A DNA stretch of 19,497 nucleotides, taken from a virus. The notes under the pieces are model-generated. The model was given only the letters and a program-made list of their open reading frames with translations, ran no database searches and was not told the origin of the DNA. The position numbers were made by a program, and so were the translations under genes. Every line of letters starts with the position of its first letter. Within the stretch, counting starts at the first letter, position 1. The stretch lies in the UHGV virus genome UHGV-0127427; one strand, written 5' to 3'. Shown one piece after another: positions 4,036 to 19,227 of this stretch.

Positions 4036-4726
4036 ATGGAAGTTATCTACATAGTAGAACCAATCATTTCCACAAGCACTAACAAGTTGATAGCAGTGGA
4101 AGTGTTGAGCAGATTTTATTCCAACGAGGGGGGCTATTCTTTCTACTCAGAAAGTATTAGGTATGTTTACAAGCAAGATGAAGATTAACTTGCTAAAATC
4201 TCAACTTAACACAATAATCAAATATAAGTATTTTTTTGAATGCCATAATATATTATGCTCTATCAATGTAGATTATGATACCTGTTTATATATATATGGC
4301 AATAAACAAATTCAAGAACTACTAATAAACAATAAATTTATAGCGATTGAGATATCAGAAAACTATCCTGATTTAAGCGATGAGGATTACATCATATCCT
4401 TTCTACTGACTTTGACAGATAATGTTTGGCTTGATGATTTTGGAAGTGGTAACGCCACCATGAAAGCATTAATTAAAAATAAATATCATGCAATAAAACT
4501 TGATAAGTCATTTTTTCAAGAGCATATGATTAAGCCTCATTTTGATGTCATTATTAGCAATTTAAAAAAGTTATGTCCGAATATCATCGCTGAAGGCGTC
4601 GAAAACATTGATTGTCATAAGTTATCAAAAGGGATAGGGCTATGGGGCACTCAGGGATATTTTTTCCCATCAATTCCGCTGACGGAGATTGAGTCCATAG
4701 ATAGTAAGTGGCTATCAGATTTATGA
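4036..4726 (+). pseudogene. EAL-domain gene (degenerate EAL-only type) split by a frameshift: frame 1 4036-4188 (50 aa, EVL motif), frame 2 4163-4726 (187 aa)
   Basis: Frame 1 starts at ATG 4036 behind GAGGGTGGGAGC and encodes the EAL-type N-terminus (EPIISTSTNKLIAVEVLSRF). Frame 2 carries the remaining EAL signatures in canonical order: DDFGSGNATMKAL (DDFGTG), IKLDKSFF (KIDRSF), IAEGVE, QGYFFPSIP (QGYLFSRP). The two frames overlap around a G6 run at 4128-4133. Confidence 0.55.
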
Positions 4727-5420: not shown

Positions 5421-5981
5421 TTAGTGCATGATGTTTGCCATCTCATAGGCGTCAGCCAGTAACTCCATCTCTGACTTGTTCAGCAGGGTGAATTCTTTCT
5501 TGCCTCCAACCACACCATCGGCATGAACAGGGACCAGCCAGGGGTATTTTGCTCTTACTTCAGCCGGAGCTGCATGCTGGTGGTGCCATCTACAAAGAGG
5601 CAATTGCTTTTTATGACAACCCGGCGCGGTACGACCGGCGATATGGTGCAGAGACATCTCATTAGATATTACTCCATGCATATAGCAGGCAATGCAGGGG
5701 AGAGTGCCAAGAGCATTGGCGATGCGCCGTTCCTCCGCCGTTGGTGTTCTCCCCTTCAAGCCACGAGATTTTATTTTTACCGCGCTTTTCCGCGTTTTGC
5801 TGGCTGGTGGGCGCTCTTTCTGTTTAGCGATACGGCGGTCGAGAGTATCCCGCATTTTCTGATATTGAGATTCTCGCCAGACCGGATCAGCCAACTTCTC
5901 CCGTTGCCGAGCGATCGCTCGTTCTCTGGCTGCCTTCTGCCACTTGCGGCACTGTTCAATTTTTTGTTCGATTGTTTTCAT
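5421..5981 (-). CDS. ref: Ref, recombination enhancement function (HNH-family endonuclease), 186 aa
   Basis: 186-aa ORF starting MKTIEQKIEQCRKWQK with Cys/His-rich HNH core (CIACYMHG...HH...CHKKQLPLCRWHH); matches P1 Ref as I recall it; located between mat and cra/cre as in P1. Confidence 0.9.
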   Translation of the reverse strand: MKTIEQKIEQCRKWQKAARERAIARQREKLADPVWRESQYQKMRDTLDRRIAKQKERPPASKTRKSAVKIKSRGLKGRTPTAEERRIANALGTLPCIACYMHGVISNEMSLHHIAGRTAPGCHKKQLPLCRWHHQHAAPAEVRAKYPWLVPVHADGVVGGKKEFTLLNKSEMELLADAYEMANIMH

Positions 5982-5985
5982 ATGG

Positions 5986-6014
5986 CAAAAAAAAAAGGCG
6001 GCCTAATGGCCGCC
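5986..6014 (-). terminator. intrinsic terminator / attenuator-like hairpin (7-bp GC stem, 4-nt loop) plus U10, 5 nt upstream of the ref ATG
   Basis: Minus-strand sense GGCGGCC-AUUA-GGCCGCC followed by ten U, then GCCAU-AUG(ref). Confidence 0.5.
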
Positions 6015-6081: not shown

Positions 6082-6098
6082 CGATATATTAGAGCAAT
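6082..6098 (-). promoter_or_regulatory. C1 operator-like site (Op2-type) overlapping a candidate ref promoter
   Basis: Minus-strand sense ATTGCTCTAATATAT (14/17 to ATTGCTCTAATAAATTT) directly followed by CGC and a perfect TATAAT, about 90 bp upstream of ref. Confidence 0.65.
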
Positions 6099-6204
6099 GA
6101 TAGATATTTTGTTTATCGCTAATCACATTTTTTCACTTCAGTACCTGTGTGCTATACTCCTTCTTGATTGATTGGATGCGGAATACAAACCCGCTCTTTT
6201 GTGC

Positions 6205-6232
6205 AGCCTGGCTCCTTGCCAGGCTTTTTTTT
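6205..6232 (+). terminator. plus-strand intrinsic terminator (AGCCUGGC-UCCUU-GCCAGGCU followed by U8)
   Basis: 8-bp GC-rich stem, 5-nt loop and a run of 8 T on the plus strand; no plus-strand CDS upstream, so it probably ends a short non-coding transcript. Confidence 0.5.
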
Positions 6233-6542
6233 ATTTCATCATGGAAGTTGTTAACGCTTTGGACCTTGCTGAACTGATTGAGAGGGCTTTGTCAACGTGC
6301 CCCAAAAATTCGCCAAACTCAGACATCACTTTAGCAAAACCGCGCCGTGCTTCTTCCTCGGTGGCATTCATCACGAAATGTTCAGCACCACGCATACTTT
6401 TGACAGGGAACGCAACGGATATTGAATCAATATCAGGCATTCTATCGCTCAGCTTTACAGTGACAATGACGGCTGGCGACTGAATATTAGTGCTTACAGA
6501 CAGCACTACATATTTTCCGTCGATGTTGAAATCCTTTCTCAC
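6231..6542 (-). CDS. Cra-like hypothetical protein (cre-associated position); start uncertain (GTG 6542 or ATG 6440)
   Basis: ORF immediately downstream of cre on the same strand with protein-like composition (EEEARRGFAKVMSEFGEFLGHVDKAL); no strong RBS at either start. Confidence 0.4.
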   Translation of the reverse strand: MRKDFNIDGKYVVLSVSTNIQSPAVIVTVKLSDRMPDIDSISVAFPVKSMRGAEHFVMNATEEEARRGFAKVMSEFGEFLGHVDKALSISSARSKALTTSMMK

Positions 6543-7853: not shown

Positions 7854-7950
7854 TTTTCACCTCTGATTGATTGGTGGTGCTAAGTGCGCTACGCGAAATC
7901 TGGAGCACTAACACTGCCAACATTTCGCAGATTTTACGTAGCGCAACCTT

Positions 7951-10644: not shown

Positions 10645-11691
10645 TTATCTAACGCTCGACGAATGACTTGTGATAGCGCCGACTCCAAGCGCGTAATCAA
10701 AGAACAATCGTTGATGCATCGCCAGCCTACCGTGCGTCTTCTCCCAATTATCGCGGTCACGCTCAATATCACGCTGGCATGACTGGCACAGAGGAATAGC
10801 ATAAATGTCATGCGCGCATAATCGACTATAACGAACGATATAAGGCGTAATGTGAGCGCCAGCTCCCGCCGCTCCACACCCACAGCATGGACGGGAAGCA
10901 ACAAAGTCCATGTACTCAGGTAATTTTAGCGATTGCAGTTTTGGTATTTTGAAATGCGCCATACCTGGGTCGGAGTCAACATCCACAGGGCATACTTTTG
11001 CACGCATCGGCGCGGCGCGTTCTTCCATCATCTGAACATATGCTGTAGCGCGATCGTCATACGGGCGAATATCCGCCTCTTTCAGTGGTCCGCTATCCTG
11101 CGGAGTAGCCTTCATCTTATTTATTATTGATATGCGGCAGACTTCTTCCGGCATCAGGTGCATCATGTTGCGCATGAAAGCCCACCAGCACAGCTCCTGA
11201 ATACTTAAATCATGGCTATTTGAAAGGCCCATTTCCTGACGGGCGACATCCAGTATCCAGTTAACGCGATTATTGTGCAGCGTTTCTTTCAGCTCATTAA
11301 AACCACGCATCCGGTAATGGTTATCGTGATGCCAGCACAACAACACCGCGCTATTGTCTCGTTCAGCGTGGACAATATGGTTGTCACACCAACTACGATC
11401 TGCGGCCTGGCATTGACCCTCTTTCCTACGCAACCACGCCACCAGCGCGTCAATTCCACCAATACGGCGAAACAGTTCATCGCTGTTAAAAAACGGCTGC
11501 AACGCCTCATTTGTTGCCATGGTTTGCTCGGTAACAACGAGGCCGTCTTCCATGTGCTCGATTAACTCACGCGGCACCGGCTCCATAATAAATTTACGGC
11601 CAGCCTCCACCAGCTTTCTGACCTCCTGATCCACTTTGAACGTGGCGAGGCCAAGCTCTTTCTGTACAAAGGGAGTAATTACGGCTTTCAC
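10645..11691 (-). CDS. pdcB: PdcB-like protein (post-doc gene B position), 348 aa, GTG start, Cys-rich C-terminal region
   Basis: GTG 11691 preceded by AAGGTG at 4 nt; C-terminal CCGCG...C..C..C..C cluster suggests metal binding; assignment by position downstream of doc. Confidence 0.5.
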
Positions 11692-11718
11692 ATCACACCT
11701 TTAATCACTGATTGGGCT

Positions 11719-11898
11719 TTATCTGCTGCCCGACATTATCTGTTTAAGCACAACCATTTCCTGACGGCATAACACAGCAATAGCGGTCCTGGCACCAATT
11801 TGCTTACTAACCAGGTATTGCTTTATCTTGCGGCGACTCACGCCATCAAGAAGCATCTTTAACGCTTCACGGGACAATTTGTTGTATTTGCGTGCCAT
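11719..11898 (-). CDS. pdcA: PdcA-like small protein, 59 aa from ATG 11898
   Basis: ATG 11898 lies 4 nt after the doc stop; the track start at 11919 would overlap doc. Positional assignment. Confidence 0.45.
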   Translation of the reverse strand: MARKYNKLSREALKMLLDGVSRRKIKQYLVSKQIGARTAIAVLCRQEMVVLKQIMSGSR

Positions 11899-11902
11899 TA
11901 AT

Positions 11903-12283
11903 CTACTCCGCAGAACCATACAATCTACGTAACGTGGCGGCGACAGAAGATACAGATATCTCGCCAGTCGCAGCGCCTACAGTAAGGTCTGCCAGTTCAG
12001 GTGAATCAAATACCTGCACCCCGTTACGGCGTAGAAATAGCAGCGCACTGTTTAGCGCGGTACGCTTATTGGCATCATTGAATATATGCCCTCTCGCTGT
12101 AGCCACCAGGTAGGTGGCGGAGACTTCGAAAAGGTCGGTGATCTCTTCGTAGGCAACTCTGGCCTGAACTCTCCCGATAATGGCCTCTGCCCTACCCGGA
12201 TCTGACATTCCCGGCAGGCCGCCGTAGCGGTTTATATTCGCATCATGAAGCGCAATAAGTTCTTCCGGTGATATATGCCTCAT
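11903..12283 (-). CDS. doc: Doc toxin (Fic-fold kinase) of the phd-doc addiction module, 126 aa
   Basis: 126-aa [50 protein letters not shown]...; start overlaps the phd stop by 1 nt (TAATG), as in P1. Confidence 0.95.
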
Positions 12284-12504
12284 TATCGGTTAACCAGTTC
12301 CTTGTTGGTGGAGTCCAGGGTGTCAAACAGGGATGCAAATTCAGCATCCAGCGCCGCTTTTTTGTAGGCTTCGAAAGTAGCCTTGCTGACAATTACTGCT
12401 GGCTCACGGCCTCTGCGGGTGATTTCAACCTCTTCCCCGGCTTCAACATTGTTGAGCACTTCAGAAAGGTTGCCGCGCGCGGTACGGAAGTTAATGGATT
12501 GCAT
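12283..12504 (-). CDS. phd: Phd antitoxin, 73 aa
   Basis: [73 protein letters not shown] from ATG 12504 (two codons inside the track's start); matches P1 Phd. Confidence 0.95.
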
Positions 12505-17200: not shown

Positions 17201-17287
17201 TTACCCATGTGCGACGATGCCGCCAAAAGTGATAGAGAACAGCCAGAAATAGATCGCGGCCATAATGATTTTGAATGCCGTGTTCAT
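17201..17287 (-). CDS. small hydrophobic peptide, 28 aa, translationally coupled to the downstream ASCH-like gene
   Basis: MNTAFKIIMAAIYFWLFSITFGGIVAHG; CAGGAG 8 nt upstream of the ATG; its stop overlaps the RBS of the next gene. Confidence 0.3.
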   Translation of the reverse strand: MNTAFKIIMAAIYFWLFSITFGGIVAHG

Positions 17288-17315
17288 ATTTTCAGCTCCT
17301 GTGATTGATTGGATA

Positions 17316-17346
17316 CATGCCGCGCCTTGCGGCATGTTTTTATTTT
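17316..17346 (+). terminator. plus-strand terminator-like hairpin (CAUGCCGC-GCCUU-GCGGCAUG followed by UUUUUAUUUU)
   Basis: 8-bp stem, 5-nt loop, T-rich tail on the plus strand, 4 nt after the GATTGATTGG motif; both flanking genes are on the minus strand. Confidence 0.4.
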
Positions 17347-17964: not shown

Positions 17965-19227
17965 TCAGCGAACGTAAATAGTGCCGCCGTTCACTTTTTC
18001 CCATGCATCGCTAAGTGCATAGCAAACATCAAGAAGTCTTCTTGCCGCTGTTTCCTCTAAACCCAATTCGACAACCAACTGCTCATGACGGCGGGTAACC
18101 ACATCAAACAGGGTATGCAGCCCTTTAGCTGCCAGATCATCAATAAATTCCGGTTCGAACGGCAGCTCTGCATCTGCCAACATAACCTCTTGCGCCCACT
18201 CAACTCGACGGACCAGTTCCGGGCGGCGGCTTTCCATCTCTTTACAGATCAATTCATGGAAGAACTCTACCCAACCTTCCGGCTGGAACTCGCGGAAAAT
18301 TGCCAACGGCTGGAAGTTTGGCATCAACCATTCGTTGATTCGGATATCAATGGCATAGCCCATGTCGCAGCAGAACTGATAAGCAAAGTCCAGCTTAGAA
18401 ACGATATAAGGACGCTCGTTATTGAACTCTTTAGGCGATGAGATCCCATAAGCCAGGAGGCGCGGGAAGAATGAGATTTGCCCTAACGTCGGATGGAGTT
18501 TGCTTGCAGGAAAACGGCGCTCAGTAATGCCATACATTTCCTTCTTGAGCGTCGCAAATTTAGCATTTTCATTAACCAGCGCGGTAACCTCTGCTTTTTT
18601 ATTAGCAAATGCCACGCGCGCTTCGCTTGCATCTTTAATAGTTTTTTTGAGCTGTTGGTTAAGATCGGCGACCTGCTTACGCAGTTCCTGTCGCTCGCTT
18701 TTAGCTTTGTTATAGCGTTTCTCAAGGTTAAAAGGATCAAGTTTCATGATCTCTTTATATTGAGATTTTAGCGTTGAAATCTGTGAGTTCCGCAGTTCAA
18801 CCATCGCGGTCATTTCATTGAGTTTTGTTTCCAGCTCAATGCTTATACGTTCGGCATTATCAGCACGCTGGTTGGCGTCATGCGTCGCATCGTCGATCGC
18901 GTCCTGTTGCTGGCGTTTCAAATGTTCAATTTGCAGCTGAAGCTCTTCAATTTCTTTACCCTTCAGACCGAGATCCAACTGCATATTTTCAGCTGCATCT
19001 ACCAGGGAGTTATGGCTATCAGCTTCTGCGTTATAAACATCAATAAGCTGTGCGTGAAGCATCTCCGCTGACTGAACCGCATTATCAAAAAAACGCGCTG
19101 TGAGGTCATCACAACTAACGCGGCGTTGCGCGGCCCGGATGTTCTGGATAATGGCCGGGATACCGGCATTCAGGACGTCAGGGATAGATACATTTTCGAT
19201 TGATTGGTTTTGTGCTGAAGTGCTCAT
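17965..19227 (-). CDS. hypothetical protein, 420 aa, long central coiled coil plus globular C-terminal region
   Basis: ATG 19227 lies 1 nt after the upstream 72-aa ORF stop; central ~200 aa are heptad-rich (E/K/Q/L); no catalytic motif recognised. Confidence 0.55.
   Translation of the reverse strand: MSTSAQNQSIENVSIPDVLNAGIPAIIQNIRAAQRRVSCDDLTARFFDNAVQSAEMLHAQLIDVYNAEADSHNSLVDAAENMQLDLGLKGKEIEELQLQIEHLKRQQQDAIDDATHDANQRADNAERISIELETKLNEMTAMVELRNSQISTLKSQYKEIMKLDPFNLEKRYNKAKSERQELRKQVADLNQQLKKTIKDASEARVAFANKKAEVTALVNENAKFATLKKEMYGITERRFPASKLHPTLGQISFFPRLLAYGISSPKEFNNERPYIVSKLDFAYQFCCDMGYAIDIRINEWLMPNFQPLAIFREFQPEGWVEFFHELICKEMESRRPELVRRVEWAQEVMLADAELPFEPEFIDDLAAKGLHTLFDVVTRRHEQLVVELGLEETAARRLLDVCYALSDAWEKVNGGTIYVR

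Follow-up and report, generated by a model that had tools for sequence, protein, structure and literature searches.

A candidate small RNA gene in the c8–ref spacer of P1-like phage-plasmids has a conserved 5′ seed that matches boxes at several phage gene starts

The stretch of DNA that we analysed (hereafter the window; 19,497 nucleotides of the virus genome UHGV-0127427) is that of a P1-like phage-plasmid and matches Salmonella phage SJ46 best (97.5% identity over the 82% of the window that aligns). The element studied here is located in the spacer between c8 and ref. The initial annotation had given its neighbours as ref and cra; the flanking gene is c8, and cra is the 73-aa ORF that lies upstream of cre. 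The genes of this region and the operator in the spacer are as follows.

7853–7632, minus strand: cra (73 aa), upstream of cre
7624–6593, minus strand: cre, in the gene order cra, cre, c8, ref
6231–6542, minus strand: c8 (103 aa), convergent with the predicted RNA
5981–5421, minus strand: ref, the next gene after c8
6082–6098, minus strand: Oref, a C1 operator, together with the divergent promoter P2ref (minus-strand sequence ATTGCTCTAATATATCG; carried over from the annotated P1 record through an alignment)

For this spacer the curated P1 record lists Oref and two ref promoters, and it contains no RNA gene, plus-strand promoter or terminator there. Elsewhere in the window, the place that mat, res and mod occupy in P1 is taken by accessory cargo that is variable among P1-like elements, namely a low-GC ORF of 187 aa (4163–4726, plus strand) with a partial EAL domain (PF00563, E = 4.5e-11) and an adjoining ORF of 159 aa that has no Pfam match.

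The ref side of the spacer has features of its own. A strong intrinsic terminator on the minus strand (5987–6014; GGCGGCC-ATTA-GGCCGCC, then T10) sits between the ref promoters with Oref and the ref start codon at 5981, and ref is without a Shine-Dalgarno sequence (SD); the ref homologue of Cronobacter phage JK004, a relative described below, has a similar layout (hairpin, U8, GGG, box, ATG). In several P1-like plasmids of E. coli and E. albertii (L004, L006 and L007, ~11168–12498) a second icd-ant (immI-like) module stands in place of ref. This module ends 2 nt before the ref-leader hairpin, which is kept in these plasmids although icd/ant replaces ref, and the RNA gene and c8 are kept beyond it. 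The arrangement suggests an attenuator at 5987–6014, or a short leader RNA of ~80 nt under C1 control.

On the c8 side of Oref, the plus strand carries, in order, the parts of a candidate small RNA gene.

6130–6135, plus strand: −35-like hexamer TTTTCA, from a promoter scan, with a 17-nt spacer to the −10
6150–6158, plus strand: extended −10 TGcTATACT, with a TG before the −10, from the promoter scan
6166–6232, plus strand: predicted small RNA of ~67 nt, running from the G 7 nt past the −10 through the U tract (both ends predicted)
6166–6175, plus strand: seed GAUUGAUUGG, the 5′ end of the predicted RNA, identical in three lineages
6174–6197, plus strand: hairpin 1, a GCGG/CCGC core with a GGA/CUC extension, from folding
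6205–6232, plus strand: intrinsic terminator (8-bp stem, 5-nt loop, U7)

The promoter first proposed for this element, TTCACT (6132–6137) and TATACT (6153–6158) with a 15-nt spacer, is present in the sequence, and the promoter scan prefers the pairing of TTTTCA with the extended −10. Oref is located upstream, ~32 nt away from the −35, with no overlap. As a class, promoter-like matches are no more frequent in the window (31) than in shuffled sequences (33.7), so that support for the RNA promoter comes from its conservation, not from its match to the consensus. We also considered a P1 late (Lpa) promoter and rejected it: an 8-mer, ACTTCAGT, is common to this site and LPmat, but its spacing to the −10 is off by 10 nt.

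The predicted RNA folds with −23.2 kcal/mol (z = −3.0), and nucleotides 1–7/8 of its seed are predicted to be unpaired (P = 0.6–0.99 in four variants). The intrinsic terminator that had been recognised at 6205–6232 is borne out and is among the best terminator-like sites of the window, with a stem-loop at 6205–6225 that is followed by T7 (6226–6232), an A and TTT; the stop codon of c8 (6233–6231) falls within this U/A tail. Because the minus-strand hairpin leads into GCACAAAAG and no U tract, the terminator works as such on the plus strand only. A free 5′ seed, a small hairpin, a U-rich linker and a terminator hairpin with a U tail give the predicted molecule the shape of an Hfq- or ProQ-type small RNA (sRNA), the U-rich linker and the U tail being indirect hints of an RNA chaperone. 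The earlier statement that the plus strand is free of ORFs holds for ATG starts; mechanically called GTG/TTG ORFs of 42, 28 and 103 aa do start inside the element, none of them with an SD. Since the RNA would start about 7 nt past the −10, at G6166, the sequence CTCCTTCT (6157–6164), whose letters belong to the −10 and to the 7 nt preceding the expected start, lies outside the predicted RNA and is not conserved in distant relatives. The anti-SD component CUCCUUCU that the initial annotation ascribed to the RNA is therefore promoter or discriminator DNA upstream of the predicted start, and it too is not conserved.

Matches to the c8–ref spacer were found in 700 PLSDB plasmids and in many IMG/VR contigs. 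Among 41 distinct P1-like sequences, positions 6145–6224 are the least variable stretch of the 600-nt neighbourhood, with a minor-allele fraction of 0.006–0.016 as against 0.03–0.13 in the ref promoter region and the c8 coding DNA, and the substitutions that occur in the element within the P1 clade fall in loops or in the U tail, or form G·U pairs. A tblastn search with C8 identified a 48%-identical homologue in Cronobacter phage JK004, and downstream of this homologue, convergent with it as in P1, are TGaTATACT, 7 nt, GATTGATTGG, a hairpin, GTGCAGCC and a terminator. Salmonella plasmids such as pCVMN1543 represent a third lineage, with an equal layout and yet another hairpin 1. Both JK004 and pCVMN1543 keep TGnTATACT, 7 nt, GATTGATTGG, a hairpin, GUGCAGCC and a terminator in DNA whose flanks no longer align, and in none of the three lineages does the distance between the −10 and GATTGATTGG depart from 7 nt. 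The extended −10 is invariant in the 41 P1-like sequences and reads TGaTATACT in JK004, pCVMN1543 and the variants L261 and L272. The −35 is a weak match that varies within the P1 clade, and a T-rich TTTTC(A/C) is found at the equivalent place in JK004 and pCVMN1543. Conservation in related phages was one of the points on which the initial annotation had staked its proposal, and promoter hexamers and terminator are both conserved across three diverged lineages.

Hairpin 1 is kept as a fold and not as a sequence. It is UGUAG/CUACA in JK004 and UGCA.GGA/UCC.UGCA in pCVMN1543, unrelated sequences at the same place, and the MAFFT alignment of this hairpin across lineages is out of register; formal pair counts were therefore made for the terminator only, and hairpin 1 was judged by folding each variant separately. 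All 11 variants fold alike, with a free 5′ end, hairpin 1 and the terminator; L261, L272 and L287 show consistent stem changes, and a G·U pair in hairpin 1 of variant L066 is valid on the plus strand only. In the distant lineages the plus strand is 3–6.5 kcal/mol more stable than its complement. For the terminator, 88 of the 88 alignment cells are paired; one change (U-A to C-G) is compensatory, and two (G-C to G·U and C-G to U·G) give wobble pairs whose complements on the opposite strand would be A·C mismatches.

The conserved blocks, that is the −10, the spacing to the start, the seed and the terminator, are, as judged from sequence comparison, exactly those of a small RNA gene, and the SD-like AAGGAG/CUCCUU is not among them. 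This removes both the idea of an anti-SD function and that of a relic minus-strand ribosome-binding site (RBS) consisting of a box, AAGGAG and a lost ORF at 6166–6175. Such a relic also has no start codon within 12 nt, and AAGGAG is missing in JK004 and pCVMN1543, where the −10 on the opposite strand is kept. A pattern scan of genome contigs (16 specified bases) returned 120 loci, of which two were relevant and nearly all others chance matches, and a scan of metagenome contigs yielded additional members only of the lineages already known. Phage D6 has no c8, cra or RNA gene and no exact CCAATCAATC box, and it is a natural negative control for the association between the RNA and the boxes described next.

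The 11-mer TGATTGATTGG, present at 6165–6175, has further exact copies at 7864–7874 and 17302–17312 and a copy with one mismatch at 19197–19207. All copies have one orientation, and none of 200 shuffles gave four matches. Observed and expected numbers of the exact 10-mer CCAAUCAAUC, the complement of the seed, are 4 and 0.07 in the window, 5 and 0.33 in P1, 6 and 0.25 in JK004, and 4 and 0.28 in pCVMN1543, an over-representation of 15–55 times. Besides the copy in the RNA gene itself, every box of the window, JK004 and pCVMN1543 lies in the sense orientation of a gene; P1 has an additional copy, which is antisense to dbn. The boxes of the window and the features around the second of them are listed here.

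7865–7874, minus strand: box 1, CCAAUCAAUC, at −21 to −12 of cra, the first gene of the cra–cre transcript from P3cre
17303–17316, minus strand: box 2, GUAUCCAAUCAAUC, at −29 to −16 of a 28-aa ORF
19198–19207, minus strand: box 3, CCAAUCAAUC, at +21 to +30 of pmgS, codons 7–10
17201–17287, minus strand: the 28-aa hydrophobic ORF, MNTAFKIIMAAIYFWLFSITFGGIVAHG, the first ORF after the C1 operator Op88/OpmgT
17315–17337, minus strand: a 10-bp hairpin in the 5′ UTR of the 28-aa ORF mRNA, formerly taken for a second terminator

Homologous boxes are found in all three lineages at three places: at the RBS of the gene that opens the cre operon, at that of a small hydrophobic ORF following pap, and in codons 7–10 of pmgS. 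Thus, the complementarity that had been noticed between the predicted RNA and CCAAUCAAUCA boxes at the RBSs of the 73-aa (cra) and 28-aa ORFs recurs in distant relatives, JK004 and pCVMN1543 keeping box 1 at the RBS of the cre operon's first gene and box 2 at the homologous small ORF after pap; the third position, in pmgS, had been missed. There the window, P1, JK004 and pCVMN1543 all have the codons xxC CAA TCA ATC, between flanking codons that differ, and in D6, which is without the RNA, the codons are AGT CAA CAC ACT. JK004 has additional boxes, one that abuts the start codon of its ref homologue (65% identical) and one at the RBS of gene_104 that is common to pCVMN1543. We note that a block at 7876–7900 (minus strand; CGCGTAGCGCAC in the window, CACGTAGCGCA in JK004 and pCVMN1543) stands 10–20 nt 5′ of the cre-operon box and is conserved in each of the three lineages.

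The RNA–RNA interaction prediction that the initial annotation called for places these sites foremost. In a scan of the window for duplexes with the predicted RNA, the three boxes are the top non-self duplexes, over a background of −5.2 ± 2.3 kcal/mol with a next best match of −14.9 kcal/mol. Box 2 forms the best of them (−20.9 kcal/mol; 14 nt complementary to the RNA 5′ end, including one G·U) and is predicted to be unpaired. Box 1 follows with −16.6 kcal/mol, and the pmgS box, with −15.0 kcal/mol, is by energy alone inseparable from the best background match. Accessibility is predicted for the seed as well as the boxes. The cra box overlaps a small predicted hairpin of the leader in which CACC is paired with the SD GGUG, and activation of cra is therefore conceivable.

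The base next to the seed match differs between the lineages. Nucleotide 11 of the RNA and the base 5′ of the box form C11–G in 5 of 5 targets of JK004 and U11–A in 4 of 4 targets of pCVMN1543, and in the P1-type RNAs nucleotide 11 (A) pairs in only one of three targets. The same pattern of covariation would equally arise from one family of protein-binding boxes that included the copy in the RNA gene. Within the P1 clade we found no covariation of seed and target: G5A (L008/L009) and G10U (L004/L006) are uncompensated at the cra box.

The 28-aa ORF lies between Op88 and pmgT, where it heads the C1-controlled pmgT operon with the next gene close behind. It is unannotated in P1 and P7 and is nearly identical in P1, P7 and SJ46, the sole difference being one silent substitution in P1. 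The ORF is conserved even where the downstream gene differs (pmgT or upf86.8), and a small hydrophobic ORF is found at the equivalent place in JK004 and pCVMN1543. The stretch at 17303–17346 upstream of it, which had been proposed as a second plus-strand copy of motif and terminator, does contain the motif, a hairpin and a T-run, and we regard it as the 5′ UTR of a target, not as a second RNA gene. A second gene is contradicted by the plus strand, which has no −10 at the conserved 7-nt distance upstream of the motif; by the equivalent hairpins of JK004 and pCVMN1543, which have no T-run on either strand; and by the position of the site inside the 5′ UTR of the 28-aa ORF, downstream of Op88. 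The hairpin resembles a plus-strand terminator in P1-type genomes only.

We estimate at roughly 60% the probability that the c8–ref spacer encodes a plus-strand RNA of ~67 nt, with its own promoter and terminator, whose 5′ seed pairs in trans with boxes in phage mRNAs. This reading, which joins the observed sequence features to their conservation and covariation, retains the core of the initial annotation, a plus-strand sRNA that pairs in trans, now supported by the comparison of three lineages, and gives up its anti-SD part, its second copy and its cra label. The candidate gene was unannotated before, and since its seed matches boxes at several phage gene starts, including that of the Cre operon, it probably regulates by base pairing. 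A primary transcript of ~67 nt would start at G6166, 7 nt past an extended −10 promoter of the sigma-70 type, and would end at the terminator at 6205–6232. Its promoter would stand back-to-back with the C1-repressed ref promoter, and the absence of overlap between the C1 operator (6082–6098) and the RNA promoter leads us to infer that it is active in lysogens. The seed GAUUGAUUGG would then pair in trans with CCAAUCAAUC boxes located 5′ of the cra SD, 5′ of the SD of the 28-aa ORF and in codons 7–10 of pmgS. The likely mechanism is pairing that blocks translation initiation: at cra and the 28-aa ORF, pairing 1–3 nt upstream of the SD would block binding of the 30S subunit and lower translation and mRNA stability, and in JK004 pairing at the ref start codon would likewise block 30S binding. 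The pmgS site, at +21 to +30, is outside the region of direct ribosome block and would need another route, such as recruitment of a nuclease. The outcome, presumed here to be repression, would be a post-transcriptional layer of control on operons that are leaky in the lysogen.

The best surviving alternative, itself improbable, is that an RNA is made and acts locally only. As a convergent or antisense transcript, or as a promoter–terminator pair, it would shield c8 and cre from the ref promoter region and block or degrade c8-to-ref read-through, and the likeness between its 5′ end and the other sites would have no function in trans. The overlap of the terminator tail with the stop codon of the convergent gene in P1-type genomes and JK004 fits such a role. 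So does the minus-strand hairpin: no U's follow it, so that transcription is expected to run on from c8 into ref (gene_57 in JK004), giving a transcript to which the RNA would be complementary throughout. The local reading leaves unexplained, however, why the first ten bases never vary when the hairpin next to them has been replaced by unrelated sequence, why complementary 10-mers are enriched 15–55 times at conserved mRNA 5′ ends, and why D6 lacks both the RNA and the boxes. The RNA would be fully antisense to any c8-to-ref read-through transcript. A local antisense role is likely as an addition to, and is compatible with, the role in trans.

Somewhat less probable still is that the CCAAUCAAUC boxes are cis elements for another reader, either a C/A-rich translational enhancer or a site for a phage RNA- or DNA-binding protein, and that 6166–6175 is one more such box. 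Translational enhancers that are C/A-rich and stand just 5′ of SDs are known from GcvB targets, the boxes are likewise C/A-rich, unstructured and just 5′ of SDs, and protein sites would explain equally well why the base 5′ of the box has changed together in all copies within a genome. Against this, the copy at 6166–6175 has no start codon after it, and the SD-like AAGGAG is missing there in JK004 and pCVMN1543; the copy lies exactly 7 nt from a conserved extended −10 on the opposite strand, and behind it come RNA structure that is specific to one strand and a terminator. The two readings are compatible, since an RNA can also target an enhancer.

We give little credence to the idea that the main role of the RNA is to repress the 28-aa hydrophobic peptide in the manner of a trans-encoded type I antitoxin, with the other boxes secondary. 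The longest and strongest complementarity is indeed at the RBS of this ORF (14 nt, −20.9 kcal/mol), the peptide is short, hydrophobic and very conserved, and RalA (PMC4041452) is one known example of an antitoxin RNA that is encoded in trans and has short complementarity. The 28-aa ORF, however, is the first gene of a C1-repressed operon, with the next gene close by, and is not a toxin gene standing alone; the RNA gene is 11 kb away, and in pCVMN1543 the small-ORF box is the least perfect of its boxes. Finally, that there is no RNA at all, the promoter- and terminator-like sequences having arisen by chance and the conservation from something else, such as a recombination hotspot, agrees with the chance level of promoter-like matches in the window and is very improbable, given an ordered promoter, 7-nt spacing, seed, hairpin and terminator that are kept across lineages with non-aligning flanks, hairpin sequences that are compensated and wobble pairs that are strand-specific.

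For seventy years P1 has served as a model phage, Cre/lox is a universal genetic tool, and to our knowledge C4 is the only recognised regulatory RNA of P1. If true, a second conserved sRNA would add an unrecognised layer to the control of lysogeny, with boxes in the cra–cre leader and in two C1-controlled operons, and it may bear on P1-like phage-plasmids that carry resistance genes, the element having matched 700 PLSDB plasmids. The seed copies nine bases of the targeting domain of the host sRNA OmrA, and the phage RNA could therefore reach host envelope mRNAs, or host OmrA could act on phage mRNAs. The classical clear-plaque phenotype of c8 could even map to the RNA and not to the adjacent 103-aa ORF. 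That the RNA is a master post-transcriptional regulator of the P1 family, acting on Cre supply, the Ref nuclease, the membrane peptide and the early and morphogenetic operons, with OmrA cross-talk and with the c8 phenotype possibly its own, is an extension that we consider unlikely, if worth stating.

No description of this RNA was found in the curated P1 record, Rfam or the searchable literature, a scope that leaves aside the P1 genome paper (Łobocka 2004). Rfam 15 gave no match at gathering thresholds in the whole window, and the matches at E ≤ 10 are sub-threshold ones that reflect a generic terminator shape (score and gathering threshold: SorX, 22.6 and 46.6; MicX, 22.5 and 75; GcvB, 20 and 42). 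GcvB is an enterobacterial, Hfq-dependent sRNA with a multi-target regulon and a Rho-independent terminator, which represses translation by pairing a G/U-rich single-stranded seed with C/A-rich elements upstream of SDs. The predicted RNA is like it in having a G/U seed that matches C/A boxes just upstream of SDs, several targets and a terminator. Unlike GcvB, to which it has no homology (20 bits by cmscan, against a gathering threshold of 42), it has its seed at the very 5′ end, is one third of the size, and is encoded by a phage with phage targets.

Among phage sRNAs, C4 (P1/P7 immI), P4 CI and P22 Sar pair at or near ribosome-binding sites of phage genes in the lysogen. C4 is processed from the operon transcript that it controls and acts on that one operon via two internal loops. 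The RNA proposed here resembles C4 as a phage-encoded sRNA that would restrain phage genes, and differs from it in having its own promoter and terminator, a seed at its 5′ terminus, and boxes spread over at least three unlinked operons. In addition, the window has no match to the Rfam C4 family, and the element lies in the c8–ref spacer, not upstream of icd-ant.

With type I antitoxins (IstR-1/tisB and RalA/ralR) the predicted RNA has in common that it is short and has limited complementarity to the initiation region of an ORF for a small hydrophobic peptide, here 14 nt at the 28-aa ORF, a putative toxin; for RalA and ralR the complementarity is 16 nt (PMC4041452). In type I pairs the genes are adjacent or overlap and the toxin is a separate transcription unit, whereas here the ORF of the putative toxin opens an operon under C1 repressor control 11 kb away, and there are several other conserved targets. 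DicF of the Qin prophage is, according to PMC5069750, likewise a prophage-borne, terminator-ended base-pairing RNA with several targets. The known targets of DicF are host genes, whereas those identified here are all phage genes, and the two RNAs have no sequence similarity.

There is also a likeness to OmrA and OmrB of E. coli, whose 5′-end targeting domain acts near the translation starts of several mRNAs (PMC2588501). Nucleotides 10–18 of OmrA, AUUGAUUGG, are identical to nucleotides 2–10 of the predicted RNA (6167–6175 of the window; 373–381 of the E. coli K-12 omrA sequence, L286) and lie inside the conserved OmrA 5′ targeting domain; OmrB differs from them by one base. These 9 nt are all that is in common; promoter, RNA body and genomic context differ. 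The OmrA-B family has a 5′ domain of ~21 nt, CCCAGAGGUAUUGAU(U/A)GGUGA, and a 3′ terminator, and the predicted RNA falls outside it, with no OmrA-B match by cmscan at E ≤ 10. Cross-talk between host and phage regulons through the OmrA-like seed is possible.

JK004 (81956–82489) and pCVMN1543 (L285, 37186–37716) encode ProQ/FinO-domain proteins (PF04352, E = 2e-12) that are 75% identical to each other, and these may be phage-borne chaperones for the RNA; P1 and the window have no such homologue. The candidate shows several features of the trans base-pairing sRNAs of the Hfq or ProQ type: it has a predicted promoter and terminator of its own, with an extended −10 and U7–8 in three lineages; its seed GAUUGAUUGG is invariant, with nucleotides 1–7/8 predicted to be single-stranded; and complementarity near mRNA starts is conserved at three positions in each of three lineages, joined in JK004 by ref and gene_104.
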